DNA of 64,000 bases from the sequence record OL436245.1; one strand, 5' to 3'. Source of the DNA: Staphylococcus phage vB_SurM-PSU4. The notes beneath the pieces are model-generated. The model was not told where the DNA came from. It did not search any database and saw only the letters and a program-made list of their open reading frames with translations. The translations under genes and the position numbers were made by a program. This document shows positions 6,255 to 60,697 of this stretch, one piece after another. Position 1 is the first letter of the stretch. The number at the start of each line of letters is the position of its first letter.

Positions 6255-7256
6255 CTACATATTAAGTAATTTATGAGACCAATCAGGGGAGTTATCACAG
6301 AACTCTTTAACTTCTTCTATATTATTTATAACTCCTTTTTGAATCTTATAGATATACACAAAGTATTTAGTTATAAAGGGTTGAAAGGGTTCATATCTAT
6401 TATCCTCTATAAACTCATACTGCATCTCTTCTGATAATAAATTTATCTCTGTAAAGAAAGTATTGTACATAGTATCGAATAGGCAAGGTATATCCTTACT
6501 ATGTTCACTTAGTAATGATATTCTTTCCTCGTGACTTAGCGATACATCAAAATCAATAATACTTTTAATAGTTTTAGGTAATGAGTCATAGTCTAGTAAT
6601 ATAGATAATAATTCTTTCTTATTAAATATAAGGTTAAGTTTCTTGTATGCTACTATAAAGTCTTCTTTAACTACCTTTTTATCTACTAAGTCTTGTAATT
6701 TACTGTAATATCTTTTAATTTGTTTATTCATATTTACCTTAGTAAATGCTGTTTCTATATTATAAAATTCTTGTATAGAGCTACTTTCTATGTTGACACC
6801 TAATTTATGCTTAAGCCATTTTGATTCTAACTCAGATAACCTATGTTCATAGATAGATTCATCTTTCGGTTTTACATGGTCTCCGTATATAGAGTCACAG
6901 TATACAGCATCAATTATATAGGTGTCAGCATTATCAAATCCGTATTTATCTAAGGCTTTTTTAAGTAATTTACCGCTCCCTTTATAAGTTATATCTGGCT
7001 TTCCTTTATGTTTCCCTATGTATGCTTTTCCTGATTGTTTAAAAACTGTTATATAGATATAACCATACATGTGTTCTGAAAGACTCTCAGACTTACCTCT
7101 TATCCCGCTACCAAAAGTAAACACATTACTAAAATGTTTTAATCTTCCTTTTTTACACTCTGAATGTACAATGTTATTTCTAACGTCTCTTACTTGAATT
7201 TCATCTAAACCTTCTTGATATACAAAATTATTTATTTTTTCTGTCATATATTCCAT
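6255..7256 (-). CDS. GIY-YIG family homing-endonuclease-like protein
   Basis: motif GYIYITVFKQSGKAYIGKH (GIY...YIG), then conserved E in EHRLSELESKWL and N in FYNIETA, analogous to I-TevI catalytic residues; own consensus promoter 7278..7306. Confidence 0.65.
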   Translation of the reverse strand: MEYMTEKINNFVYQEGLDEIQVRDVRNNIVHSECKKGRLKHFSNVFTFGSGIRGKSESLSEHMYGYIYITVFKQSGKAYIGKHKGKPDITYKGSGKLLKKALDKYGFDNADTYIIDAVYCDSIYGDHVKPKDESIYEHRLSELESKWLKHKLGVNIESSSIQEFYNIETAFTKVNMNKQIKRYYSKLQDLVDKKVVKEDFIVAYKKLNLIFNKKELLSILLDYDSLPKTIKSIIDFDVSLSHEERISLLSEHSKDIPCLFDTMYNTFFTEINLLSEEMQYEFIEDNRYEPFQPFITKYFVYIYKIQKGVINNIEEVKEFCDNSPDWSHKLLNM

Positions 7257-25911: not shown

Positions 25912-26997
25912 TCACCAAAATCTTTTTTCTTCTGTAAAATCCAAATAATCATAGTAATCATCAGTATTACAAGTATTTATACCATAGATACTATGAAATT
26001 CTCTATGACAATCCTCACATAAAGTAACTCCGTTATTCAAGTCTAGTCTTTTTTCTTTATTGATAGAATAAGGTTCTAAATGATGGGCATGTAACCTATT
26101 ACCAAAACTCCAACATACTTGACATGTATAATTATCTCTAACAAATACTGTTTTTACCCACTCTTTGTATTCAGGATAAGAACGTCTTAATAATCTTTCT
26201 TCCTTAGATAAGTTATGGTTCCAATTAGGGTTTTCTTCTCCTTTTTTGTAACCACACCCACATCTAATACCTTTTTTTATAGTTGGTAAATATCCTTTAG
26301 CTATATTCCCACACGAACATTTATATGTTATGGGTAAATCTATATTTTCGTATCCTCCAAGGTATTCTAAACCTAATGTCTCTAATTCTTTTTTAATATA
26401 GTCTATACTAAGTTTTTGCTCCTTTGCTCTTTTATTATCAGAACATTTTTTACAATTATATTTTTTATATAAATAAAAAGGTTTATCATTTACATGATTA
26501 TTCTTACATTTATATACTACATTAATTCTTTGTCTTTTTTTATCGTAGTATACTTCTAAAAGTTTATCTTCTACATGTTTAAAATAACTTTCTATTTCTT
26601 CATACGGTGTAGTTATTTTCTTATGTCGTAAATCGTACCCACATTTTTGACATCTTTTTCTTTTTTTAAAATCATCAGGTAAAATATCTGATTTATTACC
26701 ACACTTACAAATAAATCTCCATCTACTTTTTGCAGGTTTATATTCAGTTTCTAGACAAATACATCCGTTATCTTCAAACAATTTTTTTATTTTATTATAA
26801 TAATTTATTTTACTTTTAGTAATACAACCACAAGAGTACTTAGTACCTTTTAGTAAATTCGTTCCTGCTACATTATATATAATATTTCCACAGGAACACT
26901 TACAATTCCAAGTAGCATTTCCAGAAGAAGTGTTATCCCCTCTAGAAAATACTGTTAACATATTAAATTTTTTTCCTAATAAGTTTTTCATCCCCAT
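25912..26997 (-). CDS. HNH homing-endonuclease-like protein with N-terminal Cys-rich zinc-finger repeats
   Basis: C-terminal NYTCQVCWSFGNRLHAHHLEPYSINKEKRLDLNNGVTLCEDCHREFH is an HNH motif; at least seven CxxC/CxC pairs upstream. Confidence 0.7.
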   Translation of the reverse strand: MGMKNLLGKKFNMLTVFSRGDNTSSGNATWNCKCSCGNIIYNVAGTNLLKGTKYSCGCITKSKINYYNKIKKLFEDNGCICLETEYKPAKSRWRFICKCGNKSDILPDDFKKRKRCQKCGYDLRHKKITTPYEEIESYFKHVEDKLLEVYYDKKRQRINVVYKCKNNHVNDKPFYLYKKYNCKKCSDNKRAKEQKLSIDYIKKELETLGLEYLGGYENIDLPITYKCSCGNIAKGYLPTIKKGIRCGCGYKKGEENPNWNHNLSKEERLLRRSYPEYKEWVKTVFVRDNYTCQVCWSFGNRLHAHHLEPYSINKEKRLDLNNGVTLCEDCHREFHSIYGINTCNTDDYYDYLDFTEEKRFW

Positions 26998-32399: not shown

Positions 32400-33716
32400 T
32401 TATTCCTCTTCTTCTTCTTCTTCTGTTTGTTCTTCTTCTGTTTGTTCTTCTTGATATTGTTCTTGAGATTGTTCTGTTTGTTGTTCTTGAGATTGTTCTG
32501 TTTGTTGTTCTTGAGATTGTTCTGTTTGTTGTTCTTGAGATTGTTCTTTAATTGCAGGTTCTAAAGGTACCATTGGAATAACTTCATTAGGTATTACAGG
32601 TTCTAAAGGTACCATAGGTTGTTCTTGAGATTGTTCTGTTTGTTGTTCTTGAGATTGTTCTGTTTGTTGTTCTTGAGATTGTTCTTTAATTGCAGGTTCT
32701 AAAGGTACCATTGGAATAACTTCATTAGGTATTGCAGGTTCTAAAGGTACCATAGGTTGTTCTTGTACTTTATTAGAAGATTCTAAAGTTACATCAGGTT
32801 TTCTATATGGTACATTATTGTCATCTTCAATAGGTTGTTGAGGTTCTATAGGAACAAAAGACTCTGGAACTGTTTGATTATCTGTAGTATCTTGAGGTAC
32901 CGTAGGTTCTTCCACAGGGTCTTGAGGTTCTATTGGTGTGTTAGGAAGAATTGGTTGTTCTATAGGTTTTTCAGATAAATTAGGTTGTTGTACTTGAGGA
33001 ACTTCGGGTGTTATAGGTTGTTGTACTTCTGGTTGTGCTTGAGGAACTTGTGGTTGCTCTACAGATGTAACAGGAGGTGCTTCTCCTTGATTATTACCTT
33101 GTGGTGGAACAATTGGTTCATTTTGTACTTGATTTCCTACAGGGTTACTTTGAGTTGGTTCTGTAGGTGTTGTAGGTGTATTATTAACACTTTCTACAAT
33201 ATCCTGTTCAGAACTATTTAAATCTTTACTATCTCCTTGTATTCCTTCTATAACTTTTTCCTTATCTATCTTATCTAACATACCTTTAGGAACTTCTACT
33301 TTCCCTATTCCGTCATCCCCTTGCACAATTCTAGGTTTATCAATCTTACTATTCTCTTTAATATCTTTACTAATTAGAACTAAGTCATCATACTTAGAGG
33401 AACCTTCATTATATTTATCTAATTGCTTATTCTGTTCTTTGGTACTTAATTCATTAAAACCTTTATAATTTGTTTCCTTCTTAACCTTTTTGATTTCTTC
33501 TTTCGCTTGACTTAATTTCTTAGCATAATTCTCAGAAATTTTATCATCTTTCTTATCTTCTTCTTTATAAATTTCTATTGTTCTTTCTTTTTCTTGTATC
33601 TCGTTTTGATACTCTTTGACTTGTTGATAGAAGATAATGAAACCAATCATAATTAAGATGATAAAGAATATAAAAATATTTAAGATTAAACTTTTACCAC
33701 TCTCTTTATTTTTCAT
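32400..33716 (-). CDS. membrane-anchored Pro/Gln/Glu-rich repeat protein
   Basis: N-terminal TM helix LILNIFIFFIILIMIGFIIF, coiled-coil region, then Pro-rich and EQSQEQQT tandem repeats; DNA tandem repeats at 32455-32770. Confidence 0.55.
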   Translation of the reverse strand: MKNKESGKSLILNIFIFFIILIMIGFIIFYQQVKEYQNEIQEKERTIEIYKEEDKKDDKISENYAKKLSQAKEEIKKVKKETNYKGFNELSTKEQNKQLDKYNEGSSKYDDLVLISKDIKENSKIDKPRIVQGDDGIGKVEVPKGMLDKIDKEKVIEGIQGDSKDLNSSEQDIVESVNNTPTTPTEPTQSNPVGNQVQNEPIVPPQGNNQGEAPPVTSVEQPQVPQAQPEVQQPITPEVPQVQQPNLSEKPIEQPILPNTPIEPQDPVEEPTVPQDTTDNQTVPESFVPIEPQQPIEDDNNVPYRKPDVTLESSNKVQEQPMVPLEPAIPNEVIPMVPLEPAIKEQSQEQQTEQSQEQQTEQSQEQPMVPLEPVIPNEVIPMVPLEPAIKEQSQEQQTEQSQEQQTEQSQEQQTEQSQEQYQEEQTEEEQTEEEEEEE

Positions 33717-34781: not shown

Positions 34782-35575
34782 TTAATCATCTAAAAAGAAT
34801 TCGTTATTGTCTTCATAACTTGTGTTAATGAATACAGAATCAAATTCATTTTCATTATTTTTAATGTATAAGTCTTCTAGACGTGATAGACCAATTCTCG
34901 CATATATACTTGCTTGACTATAATGGTCATCACCTTTTCTCTTGATTACTTGATACATTTCTTCTGTCTTGCTATCTTCTTCATCTCTGATGACCACATT
35001 TTGCCAATGTTTAAGAAGTATAGCTTTATCATTATCATTTTCTTGGTAAATTCTTATTCTACCTGTTTTTAAATCTTGGATATAAATTTTGTTCTGCATC
35101 AATTTATCTACAGTAACAATATTTGAATTCTCGTTAAACACAGGTTTAATTTGTCCAGTAGATTTAGGAGATGATTTGTAAGTACAACCAAACACAATAT
35201 CTTCACCGAAGTATTGTTGGAGTCTTAGTAAGTTGTTTCCTGAATCTCCTGTATCTGCTACAATAATATCTGGGTTATACTTAGAAAATTCTACACGTAT
35301 TTTTTCTATATCCGATTCAACCATGTTAGGGTTTTTATTTCGTTTAACATTAAATAACCTAATGAGGTCTATCTTACCATCTTCAGTCATTCCATGAATT
35401 GTACAATAATGAATATTACCCCAATCCACTGATGCTGCGATAAATTTATAATCCCCTCTATTAAACATTTGTTTCTTAGCAATAGGAGATTGGTTGTTGT
35501 AAATATCTTCTTGTAATACTTTCATCTTCTGGTCTTCGTATGGAAACGTTACTACCGTCACTTTCGTGATATTTA
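34782..35575 (-). CDS. terL: terminase large subunit, last exon (C-terminal nuclease domain)
   Basis: IAASVDWGN ... IIVADTGDSGNN ... KGDDHYSQASIYARIG resemble the RNase H-like nuclease motifs of large terminases (Asp strand, DDxxxAxxxA tail); the 5' boundary is set by intron core 35581-35708. Confidence 0.6.
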
Positions 35576-36115
35576 TATACGGACTAGACTATATCATATT
35601 CCTTATTTTTGACTAAGGAATCTCTACTTTACAGGTCGTTAACCTTCTCTTATAGTTCTACCTTACCTCATTTAGTAAGTTACCTATAAACTTAGTCGTT
35701 AGGCATTTATCTACTTTGTAGAATTTAGCAATTGATTGCCCTCATCTTTACATGTTAGGGGTTTCCAATTTTAGTAGAGTTATTCGATATACATTACTGT
35801 ATAAAGGGGCTATCCCGCTAACCCAGCGTGTAGTTGTAGAACAATTGAGTTGATTCAGTATTCATTTCTTTTTCTTTTAATTCACTAGCTGAAATCCAAC
35901 ATTTTTTTGTTACGATTGAGTTCGTTATTCTCAACCTTCTATATATCGCTATATAAGTTCAGACTATATCTTTACCTTATCAAATGAGACTTAGGTATCC
36001 TCTGTTTCGTGCTACTTAGCACTACTAATTAGTCGTTGCACGTTCTCTTATTACAAGAGCTTCGCTCATGATTATCTCTAATGAGAGACTTCCCATGAAT
36101 TAAAAGGACTTCACT
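35576..36115 (-). ncRNA. group I intron (ORF-less) in terL; boundaries approximate
   Basis: minus-strand sense has an R-like element aaatgcctaacgactaag (plus 35691-35708) and an S-like element atgatatagtctagtcc (plus 35581-35597), forming P7 gacta/tagtc; no ORF inside. Confidence 0.55.
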
Positions 36116-36118
36116 CTA

Positions 36119-36500
36119 TACATTTCTATATAGAGGGGCTTGGTTAACCGCATTTAGCTGTGAAATAAAATAACCTCTTGTTCCTTTTCCACCTTTAGTT
36201 CTTTCAGGATACTTACAGTGCCATTCTCCGTTATACCATCTATCTAGAAGTTTACCACATTTTTGACAAACAAATTGGTAACTTCCTTCTTGCACTGTTT
36301 TAGCCATTTCGTCAACACCTTCAGGATTGACTAATAGGATATTTCCACTCTTCTCTAAGTTATCTGGGTCATAGTCTTCATAACTCATTTCATTTAAGTA
36401 ATCACAATGTGTACATCTATGACCATAATACCATTGGTCAGATTGCATATAGAGTTTATGAATTCCCATATTTGGAGTCGTCTTCAACATTACTATTTTC
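36119..36500 (-). CDS. terL: terminase large subunit, internal exon (contains Cys-rich zinc-ribbon-like segment)
   Basis: ORF bracketed by two intron cores; HRCTHCDY ... CQKCG ... WHC. Confidence 0.45.
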
Positions 36501-36502
36501 AT

Positions 36503-37691
36503 AATAAAATGGACTATCTCATAATCCTTAGTTTTGGTTAAGGATTCTCTGCTTTACGATTTTATAAATAACTAAAAATAACTTCTTTTATTTCTTCATC
36601 TGTATAAGTATAGGGTATTCTTAATAAATCTATATTATTTTTTTCAGCATAATTATTTTTAATATTATCTCTTCTTTGTTGGTCTTTCAATTTTTTAGCC
36701 CCACCAAAAAATTCTACAGGTTTACTATGCTGAATTCCATCATATTCTATAAGAAGGTTTTTACTAGGAATATAAAAATCAAAAGGTAAGTATTTACCTC
36801 TAACTTTTAAATCTTCATATACTTTTTGTATTTCGTAAGTAACTTTATTATCTTTTAGAACTCTCTCTACTTTTCTCTCACCCTTAGATTGTTTACAAAA
36901 AGGACATCTATTACCATTTAAAAAATCTTTAGGTGTAACATAGTAATCAGAACCACAACCTTTATGATGAACAACAACATTTGACCTATTATTAATATAC
37001 TCAGATTTTAAAATAAATTCACCCTCACCTTTTTGTAATACCTCTTTTTTAAATTCCTCAGTAGTTTTTCTTCTATTACCAAAACAATAGGGGCATCTAT
37101 TACCTCTTAAGAAATCTTTAGGTGTCATATCAAAAATATTATCACATTTGAAATGTTTTATTTTTATCTTAGTAGTGCTTCTTCTATACTTTGTTAGTTG
37201 TTGATACTCTTCTTTTGCTATTTCTTTGAATTCTTTTTCAAAAATATAAGGATTTTTTCTTGTTGTGTTACATGAACATCTTCTATTATCATAGAAAAAA
37301 TGATTGGGTGTTGTTGTGAATATCTCACCACAATCAGTATGGAAAAAATCCATATTTACGTTACCTTTTATATATTCTGATTTAACCTTGTATTCTTCCC
37401 CTACTTTATTATACAATCTTTCTTTTATATCTTCTGTAGTTACTTTTTTAGTCATTTAAATCATCCTCTTATTAATATTTTATTCAATTATAACAAATAA
37501 ATATTAATAAGTCAATGATTATTTAAAATCTTTTATCTGATTCTACCTTACTCCTTTTAGTAAGTTACTCAGAAATTTAGTCTCTAGGCATTTACAAGTA
37601 TATAACTTGATTTAGCAATTGATTGTCTACAGCATTATCTGTTTAGAGTTTCCAATTTTAACAGAGTTTTTCAAAACAAATTACTTTGTTA
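36503..37691 (-). ncRNA. group I intron in terL carrying an endonuclease ORF; boundaries approximate
   Basis: R-like aaatgcctagagactaaa (plus 37576-37594) upstream of the ORF and S-like gagatagtcc (plus 36511-36520) downstream of it, so the ORF sits in the P8 loop region. Confidence 0.55.
36562..37455 (-). CDS. intron-encoded endonuclease: N-terminal CxxC zinc-ribbon repeats plus C-terminal Vsr/DUF559-like PD-(D/E)XK domain
   Basis: repeated modules ending RCSC, RCPYC, RCPFC; C-terminus FDFYIPSKNLLIEYDGIQHSKPVEFFGG ... NIDLLRIPY matches the DFY...IE.DG..H core of Vsr-like endonucleases. Confidence 0.6.
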   Translation of the reverse strand: MTKKVTTEDIKERLYNKVGEEYKVKSEYIKGNVNMDFFHTDCGEIFTTTPNHFFYDNRRCSCNTTRKNPYIFEKEFKEIAKEEYQQLTKYRRSTTKIKIKHFKCDNIFDMTPKDFLRGNRCPYCFGNRRKTTEEFKKEVLQKGEGEFILKSEYINNRSNVVVHHKGCGSDYYVTPKDFLNGNRCPFCKQSKGERKVERVLKDNKVTYEIQKVYEDLKVRGKYLPFDFYIPSKNLLIEYDGIQHSKPVEFFGGAKKLKDQQRRDNIKNNYAEKNNIDLLRIPYTYTDEEIKEVIFSYL

Positions 37692-38005
37692 AGCCCCACG
37701 ATTTAACATAGGGGTACTCCAACGTCTTATAACCTTGAAAGGTGAACTTGACATTGATTCCATTGCTGATGATTCTGATGATGAAGGTACTCTATCATAT
37801 TCATCCAGTGACAAATAATCAATATCCACACCTTCTAAAGCTTTAGGTGTAGAACTTGTTCTAAAGAACATACTTGAATTTCTTATTTGTTTATATTTTA
37901 ATGAGTCATTATCTTGGTTAATGATGCTTGCAAAATAAGGTTGTTGCAATGTAGGGTTTATCCTACTTTGTACGAATTTCTGCATTTGGTCACTGGTCAT
38001 TTTTA
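37692..38005 (-). CDS. terL: terminase large subunit, internal exon (Walker B-like DIDYLSLDEYD)
   Basis: ORF bracketed by intron cores; hydrophobic run then DE, typical of a terminase ATPase Walker B. Confidence 0.45.
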
Positions 38006-39408
38006 CCCCTAGTTTCCTAGTATTTAAAGGGATTAGACTATATCATAAGAATACATTTATATATTTAAATACGGACTGTATTCTTCTCTGCTTTACTTCC
38101 TAATAAGTATTTATCTTTTAAGTCTTCTAAGTAATTTATAAGTTTTATTCCTGCTATTGTGTAAGGTATTCTAATCATCTCAATGTTATTATCTTTAGCG
38201 TACTTATTTTTTATATCATCTCTTATTTGTTGCTTTTTGAAGGCTTCTAAACCTCCAAAATATTCTATAGGTTCATAATGTTGTTTCCCATCATATTCAA
38301 TAAAAAGCCCATTCTCACCATAATCAGGTATATAAAAATCAAACTTTAAAATGTTAATATATCTACAATCCTCAAATGATTTTTGAAACTCATATATTAT
38401 ACCTTCATCTTTTAAAAATCCCGCTATTATATCTTCGCCATTAGAAATACTACTACATTGAGGGCATCCTGTTAACCTTAAAACATGATTAGGTTCAGCT
38501 TTAAAAACACATTTACACTCATTACATTGGAAAGATGTTTTAGTATGAGTATTTACATAATCACCTATCAAACTTATTTTACCTTTGTGAAAATACTCTA
38601 ATTGTTCTTGAACAACATCTATCTTCTTACGTTGAGATTCTTTAACATTTTCTATGATACATTGAGGACATACATTCTTCCTTCTTTTACTTATCATATT
38701 TATAGGTGTATTATAAAAATAAAAATCATGTACATTACATTTTAATTTTATACTTTCCGAATATCCTGTATATTCACCAATAACAGAAATATTATTATTG
38801 TACTTTTTATTTATCTCATCTTTAAACGTATCTGTTGTTTTAATTCTTTTTTGATTATCACAATAATAACATCTACTATTTCCTGTTAGGAAATTATTTG
38901 GTTTTACAGACCATTCATTACCACAAATGTTATGTTTCATAAGTATTTTATCTCTAGTTCTTGTATACTTACCAATAACTGTGTATTCATTACCTACTAA
39001 ATCATATATTTCTCGTTCAAATTCTTCTTGTGTTTTCTTTTTAGACATTCTTATCCCCCTTTCTTATCTTTTTATACTTATTAGGTTTTCTTATACTATT
39101 TTCGTTATCTCCATTCAGATAACTATTAGTAAGTTTAGTCGTTAGACATTTATCCTAACATTACTATATCATATATAAATATAGTTGTCAAGAATTTAGT
39201 ACGGTAGGTTCCCACTATCTGTGTATAGTCAGAGTTAGGGTTTCTTACCAGTATATTGTTTATCTATACATTATTTTACTATGCCCGTTTAACAGAGTTT
39301 TAGTTCCCCACTCTGTTATTTCATAGGGAACGTGAACATACACTTGACAGAATCTTTACTATGTGTATCTGCAAAATGCAACATCTTATTGTATCCAACT
39401 TCACTTAA
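38006..39408 (-). ncRNA. group I intron in terL carrying an endonuclease ORF; boundaries approximate
   Basis: R-like taaatgtctaacgactaaac (plus 39133-39152), S-like atgatatagtctaatccc (plus 38031-38046); the 3' end cccctagtttcctagtatttaaaggg is shared with the intron at 39479..39734. Confidence 0.5.
38065..39048 (-). CDS. intron-encoded endonuclease, paralog of 36562..37455 (CxxC repeats plus Vsr/DUF559-like domain)
   Basis: C-terminus FDFYIPDYGENGLFIEYDGKQHYEPIEYFGG ... NIEMIRIPY; N-terminal modules ending RCYYC, CPQC, CPQC. Confidence 0.6.
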   Translation of the reverse strand: MSKKKTQEEFEREIYDLVGNEYTVIGKYTRTRDKILMKHNICGNEWSVKPNNFLTGNSRCYYCDNQKRIKTTDTFKDEINKKYNNNISVIGEYTGYSESIKLKCNVHDFYFYNTPINMISKRRKNVCPQCIIENVKESQRKKIDVVQEQLEYFHKGKISLIGDYVNTHTKTSFQCNECKCVFKAEPNHVLRLTGCPQCSSISNGEDIIAGFLKDEGIIYEFQKSFEDCRYINILKFDFYIPDYGENGLFIEYDGKQHYEPIEYFGGLEAFKKQQIRDDIKNKYAKDNNIEMIRIPYTIAGIKLINYLEDLKDKYLLGSKAEKNTVRI

Positions 39409-39478
39409 TCCAAGTTGTCTCGATTTAAGTACTGCTATGTTAGGGTGTTTATCATTTATTATGGCAATCTGCCCGTTT
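39409..39478 (-). CDS. terL: terminase large subunit, short exon containing Walker A-like SRQLG
   Basis: minus-strand reading ...GQIAIINDKHPNIAVLKSRQLG between two intron cores; compare T4 gp17 Walker A SRQLGKT; the downstream exon may supply the K-T. Confidence 0.4.
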
Positions 39479-39734
39479 TATACCCCTAGTTTCCTAGTAT
39501 TTAAAGGGTTTGGACTATCTCATAGTTACTAATTTAGGTAAGTAACCCTCTTCTGTTACTTCTCTTAAAAAGAGCTTTCTTATACTGTTCTACACTCAAC
39601 CATTTATGAGCTTACCAGTAATTTTAGTCTCTAGGCATTTATGACTTATTAAGCCAATTTAGCAATTGATTGTCCTCGTCTTTACGTTAGGAGTTTCCAA
39701 TTTTAAGAAGAGTTTAAAGACCACAGCAAATTTA
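39479..39734 (-). ncRNA. group I intron (ORF-less) in terL; boundaries approximate
   Basis: R-like aaatgcctagagactaaaa (plus 39622-39640), S-like gagatagtcc (plus 39512-39523). Confidence 0.45.
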
Positions 39735-39935
39735 TGGTCTATGAGCTTGAGCTTTACTTTTATCTCTATTTGGTATAGAAAAAGTAATATTATGCCCACG
39801 AATTAAATTGTGTTTCAACATATAAGCAGTAGTACTAGACATTGTTAATACATAATCTAATTGTTCTTGGGTAACATTTGTAGTTCCATATGTGGATATG
39901 AGTAAGTCTTTTAATTGTTTTCCATCCATTTTCAT
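39735..39935 (-). CDS. terL: terminase large subunit, first exon (N-terminus MKMDGKQLKDLL...)
   Basis: ATG with RBS ggagac directly after the stop of 39938..40408; the in-frame stop at 39732 lies inside intron sequence. Confidence 0.4.
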
Positions 39936-58646: not shown

Positions 58647-58985
58647 ATGGCAAGTGAAGCTAAACAAAGTATTCACACTGGTAATACCGTCTATCTAATG
58701 GTTAAGGGTAAAATTGTAGGCAGAGCTCAATCAGCTTCAGGTACACGTGAATACGGTACTGAGGGCGTATATGAAATTGGTTCTATCATGCCACAAGAAC
58801 ACGTTTACCTTAGATACGAAGGTACAGTGACAATAGAAAGATTACGAATGAAAAAAGAAAACTTTGCAAAATTAGGATATGCTTCTTTAGGTGAAGAAAT
58901 CCTTAAAAAAGATGTTATCGATATTTTAGTTGTAGATAACTTAACTAAGAGTGTAATCATAGCGTATCATGGTTTAACTAAATAG
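58647..58985 (+). CDS. tail tube protein (112 aa as it stands; 3' end possibly intron-interrupted)
   Basis: small protein right after the sheath with RBS aataggagag; its TAG stop is followed directly by a group-I-like element. Confidence 0.5.
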   Translation: MASEAKQSIHTGNTVYLMVKGKIVGRAQSASGTREYGTEGVYEIGSIMPQEHVYLRYEGTVTIERLRMKKENFAKLGYASLGEEILKKDVIDILVVDNLTKSVIIAYHGLTK

Positions 58986-59364
58986 ACCCCTTGTACAGTG
59001 ATGTGCATTGAATAATACTTTAAATTGCTAGAACACCGTAAAGCTAACTTAACCACATAGGAATTGGAAACGATAAACTAGAAGGTCAGGAAACTAGAAA
59101 AAATAAGTTAGATGGTATATGGTTAAAACCTAAGTACTAATTAATCGGAAATTAGCATCGAAGCTCCTGTAAAATGGAGAACGTTCAACGACTATAATAA
59201 GTGAGTCTTAGTTACAATAAGATTATGGAATAGTCTAGTCCGTATATAAATATTGCGAAAGCAACGGTAGAATCGGTTCAGCGAATAACTATGATGAAGA
59301 GATAAACACGAACGAAATGATAACTGAGAGCATAGAGTTTTCTTATCTTACAGCATTAAATTTC
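58986..59364 (+). ncRNA. group-I-intron-like ribozyme core A (ORF-less)
   Basis: R-like gttcaacgactata (59183-59196) and S-like atagtc (59230-59235) form a P7 pairing; aatcggaa-type internal elements; starts with the motif agaccccttgtacagtgatgtgcattgaataa. Confidence 0.5.
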
Positions 59365-59650
59365 TAGTGCCCTTATACAGTAATGTATATTGAATAAATC
59401 CTCTAATTCAGGGAAACCCTAAACGAAATTAAGACGTAGGCAATCCTGAGCTAAGCCTGTAACATACAGGAAAGTGCAACGACTATCTCTACGGAGAGTA
59501 CGCTCAAGTGAGTGGAAATGGGGATTATCCTATAAAGTATAGGATAGTGATATAGTCTGGACATATATGGAAACATATAGAAGGTTAGGAGTAACGAACC
59601 TAATCGTAACACAATCGCAGATAAAGCATCATAATAATTTAGTATACTTA
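59365..59650 (+). ncRNA. group-I-intron-like ribozyme core B (ORF-less)
   Basis: gggaaaccc (59411-59419), aggcaatcctgagctaagcc (59438-59457; compare T4 td ggcaatcctgagccaagcc), R gtgcaacgactatctc (59474-59489), S atatagtctgg (59550-59560); begins with the same motif agtgcccttatacagtaatgtatattgaataa as core A. Confidence 0.55.
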
Positions 59651-59653
59651 AAC

Positions 59654-59690
59654 CCAACTTTTATTGTTGGGTTTATTTTTTTTTAATTTG
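59654..59690 (+). terminator. rho-independent terminator
   Basis: aaacccaac ttttatt gttgggttt then T10. Confidence 0.65.
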
Positions 59691-59716
59691 CTTTATCAGA
59701 AGCAGTATGTTATAAT
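59688..59716 (+). promoter_or_regulatory. sigma-A-like promoter for the free-standing endonuclease gene
   Basis: TTGCTT 59688-59693, 17-nt spacer, TATAAT 59711-59716; RBS aaggag follows. Confidence 0.5.
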
Positions 59717-59739
59717 ATAAATATAAGGAGATGATATAA

Positions 59740-60675
59740 ATGAAACAAACAAACCAATTTACATTTAATAAAAAAGAAAGTCAGAAGATATGGGAAGAAT
59801 GGTGTATCAATCAGGGGTTAAAACCTTTAGTTACATATGAGAAATCTCAACAACCTTTTTATTTTGAATTTACTTCAGGTAAATTTAAAGGATTAGTAGG
59901 TAAAACATATTGGGCTAGTATAAAAAGAGGTTCAATAATGAGATTGAGTTGCTTAACAGAAGAGAGTAAAAATAAATATATTAAAGAATTAGGTAAAAGT
60001 AAAGGAATAGAAATTATAGAAGACTATAAAGGAGGTAGAAAAATAAAGCATAAGTTTATTTCAATAGATGGAAAATACAAAGGGTGTGAGGGACAAGTAA
60101 CCTTAAATGACTTAGAGAATATGAAATCTATAGATAATAGAAGTTTAACAATTAAAGGTAAAAAACAATATTTTGATTATAAAGCGAAACAAAGAGATTG
60201 TACAATACTAGAATATCCAGAAAATTATAATATAAAAACCAATGAAAAACTAATAGTAGAAGATAACAAAGGATTAAAACATGAGATAATAGTCCAAGAC
60301 TTTTTTGAGAAAAACTCTATATTAGAAGTTTCAAATTTTAGTGAAGGAGAAAAAATAGTTAAAGAAATACTTATAGAAAGAGGTATTGATTTTATCAAAG
60401 AGAAAGGATTTAAAAATAGTAAAGGTATAACACAGAGGTTTGACTTTTATATAGAATTAGGAGAAGAATTATTTGTAATAGAGTATAATGGTTCACAACA
60501 TTATAAAAAAGCAACGGGATACTTTAAAGATACATTAGAAAAAACTCAAAAAAGAGATGAGTTGAAAAGAGAATATTGTAAAAGAAATAATATATATCTT
60601 TTGGAAATACCTTATACTATTAAAGATAAAGAAAGTATAGACAAAGAGATAAAAGAATTTTTAGACCTAGATTAA
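59740..60675 (+). CDS. free-standing endonuclease, third paralog of the Vsr/DUF559-like family
   Basis: C-terminus FDFYIELGEELFVIEYNGSQHYKKATGYF ... NIYLLEIPY aligns with 36562..37455 and 38065..39048; has its own promoter, RBS and terminator. Confidence 0.6.
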   Translation: MKQTNQFTFNKKESQKIWEEWCINQGLKPLVTYEKSQQPFYFEFTSGKFKGLVGKTYWASIKRGSIMRLSCLTEESKNKYIKELGKSKGIEIIEDYKGGRKIKHKFISIDGKYKGCEGQVTLNDLENMKSIDNRSLTIKGKKQYFDYKAKQRDCTILEYPENYNIKTNEKLIVEDNKGLKHEIIVQDFFEKNSILEVSNFSEGEKIVKEILIERGIDFIKEKGFKNSKGITQRFDFYIELGEELFVIEYNGSQHYKKATGYFKDTLEKTQKRDELKREYCKRNNIYLLEIPYTIKDKESIDKEIKEFLDLD

Positions 60676-60697
60676 TTTCTAGGTCTTTTTTTTTATT
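60663..60697 (+). terminator. rho-independent terminator
   Basis: agacctag...ctaggtct then T10. Confidence 0.65.

Follow-up and report, generated by a model that had tools for sequence, protein, structure and literature searches.

The stretch of DNA analysed here, 64,000 nucleotides of Staphylococcus phage vB_SurM-PSU4 (sequence record OL436245.1; hereafter the window), carries three open reading frames (ORFs) of a single family, two of which (copies 1 and 2) lie inside introns of the terL gene on the minus strand, with the third (copy 3) downstream of the tail tube gene on the plus strand. All three had been recognised in an earlier inspection of the letters alone (the sequence-only reading), whose coordinates for them are exact; none of the ORFs contains an internal stop, and a Shine-Dalgarno-like sequence, read by eye, lies 5' of each. 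Their description as three paralogs also holds, since the C-terminal domains match solely one another when each is searched against the window (tblastn, E 1e-11 to 1e-27). The terL region is laid out below, where HEG denotes a putative homing endonuclease gene and R1 a 141-position covariance model of the 3' core, derived from Silviavirus introns and independent of Rfam RF00028.

34782..39935, minus strand: terL gene, exons 39935-39734, 39473-39325, 37997-37710, 36481-36147, 35899-35821 and 35546-34782
39474..39733, minus strand: terL intron 1, predicted group I, 260 nt, no ORF, after ...AHRP/W; RF00028 35.4 bits (E 2.6e-7), R1 22.4 bits
37998..39324, minus strand: terL intron 2, predicted group I, 1327 nt, holds copy 2, after codons ...MFTFP; placed by exon mapping
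38065..39048, minus strand: HEG copy 2, 327 aa, within terL intron 2; three predicted zinc modules and a nuclease domain; Pfam DUF4379 E 4.8e-8
36482..37709, minus strand: terL intron 3, predicted group I, 1228 nt, holds copy 1, after codons ...RRWSTP; R1 split matches 37547-37627 and 36490-36549
36562..37455, minus strand: HEG copy 1, 297 aa, within terL intron 3; modules aa 1-64, 65-127 and 128-190, Vsr/EDxHD-like nuclease domain aa ~190-297
35900..36146, minus strand: terL intron 4, predicted group I, 247 nt, no ORF; RF00028 90.8 bits, R1 86.4 bits
35547..35820, minus strand: terL intron 5, predicted group I, 274 nt, no ORF; RF00028 48.8 bits (E 2.3e-11), R1 46.4 bits

Joining the six terL exons yields a coding sequence of 1818 nt (605 aa) whose only stop is the terminal one, and the spliced TerL is colinear with the TerL proteins of IME-SA2 and BS1. 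The U/G rule (an exon-terminal T upstream and an intron-final G) holds in all seven introns of terL and the tube gene, six of which are matched by R1, with RF00028 scores of up to 95.5 bits. The exception is terL intron 2, whose core is split by the ORF and was matched by neither RF00028 nor R1; it shares 80% identity with the Kayvirus I-MsaI intron in its 5' part and, at its 3' end, 92% identity with the 3' end of intron 1, and its predicted assignment to group I rests on its boundaries and this homology with other introns. Rfam searches of the whole window and of 2.5-18 kb stretches gave no group I match, as if introns were absent, a false negative of the speed filter, since stretches of 0.3-0.7 kb do match RF00028. 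The intron-borne location claimed for copies 1 and 2 is thus borne out by the intact spliced terL, the T/G boundaries and, intron 2 excepted, the core matches, and the terL introns are predicted to be self-splicing group I introns.

The third copy lies in the following setting.

58647..59634, plus strand: tail tube gene, exons 58647-58974, 59276-59356 and 59618-59634; spliced ORF intact
58975-59275, plus strand: tube intron 1, predicted group I, ORF-less; R1 28.2 bits
59357-59617, plus strand: tube intron 2, predicted group I, ORF-less; RF00028 95.5 bits, R1 126.7 bits
59649-59675, plus strand: terminator-like hairpin 5' of copy 3
59688 to 59716, plus strand: possible copy 3 promoter, TTGCTT (59688) - 17 nt - TGTTATAAT (59708-59716), read by eye
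59725, plus strand: copy 3 ribosome-binding site AAGGAG, read by eye (signals region 59649..59730)
59740..60675, plus strand: HEG copy 3, 311 aa, free-standing; three cysteine-free modules and a nuclease domain
60663..60686, plus strand: terminator-like hairpin at the copy 3 end

The C-terminus of the spliced tube protein (...YHGCSANNY...SYLTASDKAS, then the stop) matches its Kayvirus counterpart (...SYLTASDKART, then the stop). Copy 3 is free-standing, as had been proposed, starting 105 nt past the true tube stop codon between the two terminator-like hairpins, of which 0.2 would be expected here. A position within a third tube intron is ruled out: the 17-nt exon upstream completes the tube ORF, a terminator-like hairpin separates this exon from copy 3, and there is no intron core downstream of copy 3. 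The putative -35 hexamer agrees with the consensus at three of six positions, which is under the scanner threshold.

The C-terminal block of the three proteins had been read as a common PD-(D/E)XK core of Vsr/DUF559 type. The block as then formulated fits copies 1 and 2, but copy 3 has IEYNG and GYFKD instead of IEYDG and FGG. Structure searches assigned this domain, for which the predicted model is of high confidence, to the Vsr / I-Bth0305I / DUF559 nuclease fold, with Vsr as the best structural match; a C-terminal nuclease domain with this Vsr-like alpha/beta fold is a hallmark of the EDxHD homing endonucleases, whose prototype is I-Bth0305I from the recA intron of Bacillus phage 0305phi8-36 (PDB 3R3P; PMC3239194). 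Residues E193, D226, E237, G240, H243, D263 and K266 (copy 1 numbering) are invariant across 73 homologs, and the catalytic equivalents in copy 3 (E204, D235, E248, H254, D273 and K276) are invariant throughout the copy-3 subfamily. In an hhalign alignment with I-Bth0305I (E 7e-4, probability only 26%), E193 pairs with E170, D226 with D196, E237 with E206, D239 with N208 and D263 with D222, whereas H243 falls one ungapped column off H213, a pairing made by eye. These residues of I-Bth0305I have been named as the Vsr-equivalent active site, H213A and D222A/N having been constructed to inactivate the enzyme and D222N having been seen to prevent cleavage (PMC3239194). The composite EDxHD motif is present in the form of Glu (Vsr E25), Asp (D51), His (H69) and Asp (D97), together with an acidic residue at the position of Vsr F62, so that the predicted catalytic set consists of the first Glu, a metal-binding Asp, an extra Glu at the F62 position, a general-base His and the final Asp.

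Profile searches were less informative. Pfam DUF559 (PF04480) scored 13.2 bits for copy 1 against a gathering cut-off of 20.6 and reached E < 0.01 in only 2 of the 73 homologs, DUF2726 matches were likewise under the Pfam threshold, Pfam Vsr gave no match at E <= 1 for any of copies 1-3, searches of the PDB with phmmer and with a profile returned nothing relevant, and pairwise BLASTP with I-Bth0305I revealed marginal similarity (E 0.006 over 67 aa). Because the DUF559 matches are below threshold, the nuclease assignment rests on fold and residue alignment. By both, the block is a nuclease rather than a member of a non-nuclease family, and its acidic and histidine residues align with those of I-Bth0305I and Vsr. 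Thus the Vsr-like fold stands, but the active site is a Vsr variant (E, D, E, H, D): it was not found to contain the D...(D/E)-x-K triad that canonical PD-(D/E)XK enzymes, those of the I-Ssp6803I type among them, carry on core strands two and three, and I-Ssp6803I, the homing enzyme first brought up for comparison, is not the relevant one.

Many homologs in phage records bear the label HNH endonuclease, given by GenBank and PHROG (for example, phiSA_BS1 YP_009799692.1), and the top PHROG match of the proteins is phrog_559, 'HNH endonuclease' (E 2e-86 and 3e-78). That copies 1-3 are HNH enzymes nevertheless deserves practically no credence, as the reading is refuted by the missing HNH motif (no Pfam HNH match in copies 1-3, compared to E 2.6e-9 for the HNH gene of the window at 25912-26997) and by the Vsr-like fold. 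The cluster phrog_559 is mixed, its members being united by common zinc modules, and the true HNH gene matches it over its whole length, which explains how the label was transferred. The sequence-only reading had identified this HNH gene correctly; its further call of a GIY-YIG gene at 6255-7256 is weakly suggested by a match to phrog_314 'homing endonuclease' (E 6e-13) and a GYIY...YIG motif seen by eye, with no Pfam match.

Each protein consists of three independent ~63-aa modules followed by the ~105-aa alpha/beta nuclease domain. Repeats of 45 aa, two to four in number, had been noted in the two intron-borne copies; they are real (BLASTP of module against module, E 1e-10 to 1e-13), but there are three per protein with a period of ~63 aa, and in all three proteins. 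The interpretation as tandem zinc modules is supported in copies 1 and 2 by Pfam matches to CapR/DUF4379-type zinc-binding domains and by the ligand sets, namely H39/C42/C60/C62, H101/C104/C121/C124 and H164/C167/C184/C187 in copy 1 and HCCC, CHCC and CCCC in the successive modules of copy 2. Each of these modules has one predicted zinc site (H/C-x2-C ... C-x1-2-C) and can be placed among the CapR/DUF4379/DUF723 domains with which phage nucleases bind DNA: among the 73 family members, 69 match DUF4379 and 52 match CapR, and DUF723 is present in the precomputed Pfam lists for many homologs. The copy 3 modules contain none of the zinc ligands, which appear to have been lost, and were identified only through a predicted helix-three strands-helix pattern, repeated three times, and PHROG profile alignment. 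Protein length in the family is quantised at about 300, 370, 435 and 505 aa, corresponding to three, four, five and six modules.

I-Bth0305I carries two N-terminal NUMOD2/HTH motifs, whereas no NUMOD or HTH Pfam match was found in the N-terminal regions of copies 1-3; with CapR/DUF4379-type modules in their place, they form a variant or outgroup rather than part of the I-Bth0305I subfamily proper. I-Bth0305I also acts as a homodimer on a pseudopalindromic 14-bp site, while the insertion sites of copies 1 and 2 have no evident symmetry (palindrome scores reached by 11% and 92% of positions, respectively, neither significant), so that the homodimer-on-palindrome model may not transfer to them. 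A closer parallel is the architecture reported in 2025 (PMC12350094), which comprises three to five ~60-aa domains with a distant relationship to Pfam CapR, DUF4379 and DUF723 and then a ~100-aa EDxHD/Vsr-like domain, occurs in phage group I and II introns, mostly group I, and makes up a large outgroup in which thousands of relatives are unannotated. By that description, copies 1-3 share the outgroup architecture, with three ~63-aa modules per protein, a C-terminal EDxHD/Vsr-like domain of ~100 aa, and residence either in phage-gene introns (copies 1 and 2, in terL) or free-standing (copy 3). The examples described there come from other phages, AR9/PBS1-like ones, where the host gene is that for the virion RNA polymerase, and cysteine-free modules like those of copy 3 go without mention in the description itself. 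The family is hence not 'unusual', as the sequence-only reading had called it: Vsr-like homing enzymes of phage introns constitute the EDxHD family (PMC3239194), and the exact architecture is on record (PMC12350094, as there described).

The modules have a wider distribution. Repeated CapR/DUF723 zinc fingers form the DNA-binding part of other phage HEGs, and the number of CapR/DUF723/DUF4379 modules is variable and has been proposed to evolve via recombination between repeats (PMC10448857). The same class of repeated zinc modules is seen in the PLE repressor CapR and in the T5orf172 (GIY-YIG-related) HEGs known from ICP1 and further phages (PMC10448857), although the T5orf172 HEGs join them to a T5orf172 nuclease domain rather than a Vsr-like one. 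Conversely, E. coli Vsr and DUF559 proteins (PDB 1CW0, 1VSR, 3HRL) have the nuclease fold and core catalytic residues in common with copies 1-3, but are single-domain proteins of repair or unknown function and not mobile-element genes. The Vsr match, together with homologs that are named Vsr in some sources or 'very-short-patch-repair endonuclease' in some JGI annotations, could be taken to indicate repair nickases, or general nucleases for phage DNA metabolism or host-DNA degradation, instead of homing enzymes. We consider this highly improbable, because two of the three copies are embedded in introns, the number of N-terminal modules varies as in the DNA-binding regions of homing enzymes, presence is patchy in closely related phages and Pfam Vsr fails to match even at E <= 1; the zinc site and intercalating Trp residues of Vsr are elaborations absent from I-Bth0305I (PMC3239194).

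Homologs occur in 421 phage records, and among closely related phages the family genes are patchily distributed. Members reside in introns at four terL sites in three compared phages, and Bacillus phage BCP8-2 is a fourth phage, with an intron at the same RRWSTP codon as copy 1 that carries an ORF 59% identical; in phiSA_BS1 the RRWSTP-site intron is ORF-less (R1 46 bits), 4 nt replacing window positions 36560-37526. The Kayvirus terL intron ORF I-MsaI (for example, IME-SA2 AKC02476.1), a 'protein of unknown function' in PMC5618024, is homologous to copies 1 and 2 over its full length (31-35% identity); it too occupies a group I intron in terL, and its phage is staphylococcal and Twort-like, but the intron lies at another codon (after AHRP), a site that in the window is occupied by an ORF-less intron. 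That one and the same terL site has the ORF in some phages and lacks it in others is a signature of active or recently active mobility. This also speaks against domestication, the idea being that copies 1-3 are decayed, non-cutting relatives of homing enzymes that serve as DNA or RNA binders, either repressors like PLE CapR, a documented co-option of such a DNA-binding module (PMC10448857), or maturases, from which the five ORF-less introns among the seven in two genes of the window might profit. While the missing zinc ligands of copy 3 would suit such decay, the catalytic residues are all invariant in both subfamilies, copy 3 included, and the nuclease domain is modelled at high confidence, which leaves this an unlikely alternative. 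We conclude that the three genes very probably code for homing endonucleases whose catalytic type is Vsr-like (EDxHD).

As homing endonucleases, copies 1 and 2 would be translated from their own ribosome-binding sites in a peripheral loop of terL introns 3 and 2, respectively. The modules would contact the intron-less allele over an extended stretch and thereby position the nuclease close to the intron insertion site, where Mg2+-dependent cleavage would take place; repair of the break by recombination with an intron-bearing genome in a mixed infection would copy the intron and its gene into the recipient, and the carrier would be protected since its resident intron splits the recognition site. 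Copy 3 probably spreads into a target nearby, by homing of the intron-less or 'collaborative' kind. In the collaborative homing of cyanophage S-PM2, as cited in PMC10448857 (ref. 56) and PMC6083498, the free-standing endonuclease F-CphI lies beside an ORF-less psbA intron. Copy 3 resembles F-CphI in arrangement only, being a free-standing HEG that directly follows a gene whose group I introns are ORF-less; the nuclease families differ, and the analogy is a hypothesis. More speculatively, and with considerable doubt, the modules of copy 3, and of some 20 relatives from Twort-like phages of staphylococci, may be a zinc-independent derivative of the CapR-like module, and copy 3 may form a collaborative unit with the two tube introns, in which copy 3 would cut intron-less tube alleles at an intron insertion site and the introns would shield the carrier.

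The enzyme type of copies 1-3 has already been described, and its recognition here bears on annotation, as hundreds of phage genes now listed as 'HNH endonuclease' or 'hypothetical' become Vsr-like (EDxHD-type) homing endonucleases. In therapeutic-type staphylococcal phages, such elements can bias allele survival after mixed infection in cocktails. The quantised arrays of three to six modules might reflect modular, re-assortable DNA reading, in which case they would be candidates for engineered recognition. The locus is a compact natural experiment, with related enzymes bearing differing module arrays at four terL sites in phages that are 60-95% identical, and because ORF-plus, ORF-less and intron-less alleles exist for the same sites, target recognition by CapR-like zinc modules would be directly testable.

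The endonuclease genes at 36562..37455 (-; copy 1), 38065..39048 (-; copy 2) and 59740..60675 (+; copy 3), delimited earlier by the sequence-only reading, are open throughout with zero internal stops (297, 327 and 311 aa), and a Shine-Dalgarno-like sequence was recognized by eye 5' of each. Their proposed paralogy holds for the C-terminal ~105 aa (tblastn against the window, E 1e-11 to 1e-27), which share the block FDFYI...IEY(D/N)G.QH...RD..K..Y...IPY; tblastn with the C-terminal regions revealed no fourth paralog in the window. Overall, observation and interpretation in that reading were correct, with small corrections needed.

In the nuclease domain, Pfam gave sub-threshold hints only (DUF559, E 0.085; DUF2726, E 0.0016 for copy 3), and confidence is high in the AF2 models (pLDDT 91.0 and 87.6). 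E193, D226, E237, G240, H243, D263 and K266 are invariant across 73 homologs, and the copy-3 subfamily retains the same residue set. Using the ORF from phage 0305phi8-36 as the reference for I-Bth0305I, hhalign (E 7e-4, probability 26%) paired E193/D226/E237/D239/D263 with E170/D196/E206/N208/D222, while H243, one ungapped column off H213, was paired by eye. The active-site residues of I-Bth0305I have been equated with Vsr E25/D51/F62/H64/H69/D97, and H213A and D222A/N were constructed as inactivating mutations, D222N being seen to block cleavage (PMC3239194). Based on this pairing and the Vsr equivalents, we conclude from fold and residue alignment that the domain has the restriction-endonuclease fold in its Vsr variant and carries an EDxHD catalytic set; a canonical D...(D/E)xK site is thus rejected. 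The invariance of the catalytic residues also disfavours the idea that these proteins are domesticated binders or maturases.

N-terminal repeats exist as claimed (inter-module BLASTP, E 1e-10 to 1e-13), but each protein has three of them, recurring every ~63 aa, rather than 2-4 of 45 aa. Copies 1 and 2 have one four-ligand set per module (e.g. H39/C42/C60/C62); such sets were looked for in the modules of copy 3 and none was found. The AF2 model of copy 3 predicts a helix-three strands-helix pattern three times, the same as in the other AF2 model. Of the 73 family members, 69 match DUF4379, a probable treble clef zinc finger, and 52 match CapR; DUF723 is present in many homologs' precomputed domain lists, and family lengths bunch near 300, 370, 435 and 505 aa, equivalent to 3, 4, 5 and 6 modules. 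In T5orf172 homing endonucleases, DNA is reported to be bound by zinc-finger repeats of the CapR/DUF723 type, whose number varies via recombination (PMC10448857).

The predicted HNH gene at 25912-26997 (-) is genuine (Pfam HNH, E 2.6e-9). It bears four similar N-terminal Cys-rich modules (C-x-C...C-x2-C) and, like copies 1 and 2, matches phrog_559 over its full length, which accounts for the frequent mislabelling of Vsr-type members as 'HNH endonuclease'. Since both types match phrog_559, a single genome appears to combine one kind of DNA-binding module with two distinct nuclease domains. Copies 1-3 themselves are not HNH endonucleases: unlike this gene, they have a Vsr-like fold and no Pfam HNH match. 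The putative GIY-YIG gene at 6255-7256 (-) has zero Pfam matches at E <= 0.01; its only match is to aa 60-116 with phrog_314 'homing endonuclease' (E 6e-13). By eye it shows GYIY-x10-YIG, and no family was assigned to the C-terminal 200 aa.

Mapping by tblastn of the TerL of Kayvirus IME-SA2 and junction reading resolved terL (34782-39935 (-)) into six exons and five group I introns, two with homing endonuclease genes:

39733-39474, -, terL intron I1, no ORF
39324-37998, -, terL intron I2, carries copy 2
37709-36482, -, terL intron I3, carries copy 1
36146-35900, -, terL intron I4, no ORF
35820-35547, -, terL intron I5, no ORF

T ends every upstream exon and G every intron, and the spliced CDS (1818 nt, 605 aa) has a single terminal stop; exon mapping and this intact CDS confirm the intron residence claimed for copies 1 and 2. 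A Vsr-like repair nuclease or general nuclease is disfavoured by this residence, by the module arrays and by the patchy distribution. On short stretches, the Rfam group I model RF00028 scored I4 at 90.8 bits, I5 at 48.8 and I1 at 35.4, and R1, our covariance model from four Silviavirus tube introns (Rfam scores 70-98 bits), matched within I4, I5, I1 and both halves of I3. Neither model detected the core of I2, which is interrupted by its ORF; the 3' ends of I2 and I1 are alike (92% over 48 nt), and in its 5' part I2 shows 80% identity to the Kayvirus terL intron. Directly downstream of the terL cluster, the ORF list has a 438-aa frame (32400-33716 (-)) whose long tandem repeats (SQEQQTEQ..., MVPLEPAI...) are rich in Pro, Gln and Glu.

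In phiSA_BS1 an ORF-less I3 occupies the same codon (R1 46 bits), with 4 nt in place of 36560-37526 (ORF plus leader), and in Bacillus phage BCP8-2 an ORF with 59% identity lies within an intron at this RRWSTP| codon. Family members occupy four distinct terL sites: the window's two, one after DYLSLD in phiSA_BS1 and one after AHRP in Kayvirus. Across four related phages there are seven distinct terL intron insertion sites. The phiSA_BS1 homolog of I4, 85% identical, sits 88 nt further upstream (LLDRW|YNGEW versus QLNAV|WISA), suggesting relocation of introns to new sites. The Kayvirus I-MsaI intron shares the site of I1, but its RNA is closest to I2 (80% over 229 nt; 39086-39300 (-) versus IME-SA2), and the I-MsaI and I2 endonucleases are just 31% identical; intron RNA and ORF appear to have separate histories.

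Copy 3 adjoins the tail tube gene:

58647-59634, +, tail tube gene, exons 58647-58974, 59276-59356 and 59618-59634
58975-59275 and 59357-59617, +, ORF-less tube group I introns

The second intron scored 95.5 bits with RF00028 and 126.7 with R1, the first 28.2 with R1. Splicing onto the final 17-nt mini-exon (59618-59634) yields the C-terminus ...SYLTASDKAS*, compared with ...SYLTASDKART* in Kayvirus. In Twort-like phages, introns appear to favour the C-terminal third of the gene as a hot spot: tblastn matches break off at aa 110-131, and Rfam scores four introns in Silviavirus. Automatic annotation of related records cuts the protein short at a stop codon inside the intron; Golestan101-M, for instance, has a 'tail tube protein' of 112 aa. 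A short frame in intron 2, NYMETYRRLG(V/I)TNLIVT (59564-59614 (+); 1764-1814 of locus L004), conserved in vB_SscM-1 and faintly like tube exon 2 (NYNETWQTNEIVTE), may be chance or the leftover of a duplicated exon. Copy 3 starts 105 nt past the tube stop, between two terminator-like hairpins (2 found versus 0.2 expected), and is thus free-standing, as first claimed.

Rfam was initially silent on the window introns through a filter artefact. With cmscan, at least 2.5 kb of AT-rich window DNA (also loci L001, L003 and L009) gave no Intron_gpI, and the same introns as 0.3-0.7 kb stretches scored as high as 95.5 bits against a gathering score of 50; the miss is a speed-filter false negative.

The first ORF matches a Staphylococcus phage vB_SurM-PSU4 protein at 100% identity. 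The nearest phage-collection records are Baoshanvirus (Herelleviridae, Twortvirinae), e.g. phiSA_BS1 and Golestan101-M, with 94-97% identity over shared parts. Homologs occur in 421 phage records (hosts Staphylococcus, Enterococcus, Streptococcus, Bacillus, Lactococcus and others), and >1100 proteins of a large collection match. The copy-3 subfamily is narrow (25 matches), its named members all from staphylococcal Twort-like phages and one annotated 'VSR endonuclease'. Copies 1-3 belong to a known, recently described type, of which, to our knowledge, no zinc-module EDxHD/Vsr enzyme has been biochemically characterised. I-Bth0305I served to define the catalytic family in 2011 (PMC3239194). NUMOD2/HTH motifs make up the N-terminal region of that enzyme, and copies 1-3 lack this one feature. 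PMC12350094 (2025) describes exactly the architecture of the window proteins, an array of three to five CapR/DUF4379/DUF723-like domains of ~60 aa each and an EDxHD/Vsr-like domain of ~100 aa, and the Kayvirus terL-intron homolog had been named I-MsaI, function unknown (PMC5618024).

The analysis establishes that the genes are intact, with the domain architecture and fold given above and with catalytic and zinc residues conserved; it likewise establishes residence in introns and that identical sites are polymorphic for presence or absence of the ORF. By analogy with I-Bth0305I and with homing in general, an extended site on the intron-less allele would be bound by the module array and then cut with Mg2+ by the Vsr-like domain close to the insertion site, and recombinational repair would carry intron and gene into the recipient allele, the carrier being protected by its inserted intron. 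A symmetry test found no significant palindromy at the insertion sites of copies 1 and 2, so the homodimer model of I-Bth0305I may not apply. Copy 3 probably spreads on its own, as a free-standing homing gene, and its position beside the tube gene with ORF-less introns suggests collaborative homing with them. What remains of interest is that the modules of copy 3 lack cysteines and that terL (five) and tube (two) are unusually rich in introns, which a routine scan would miss through its speed filter.
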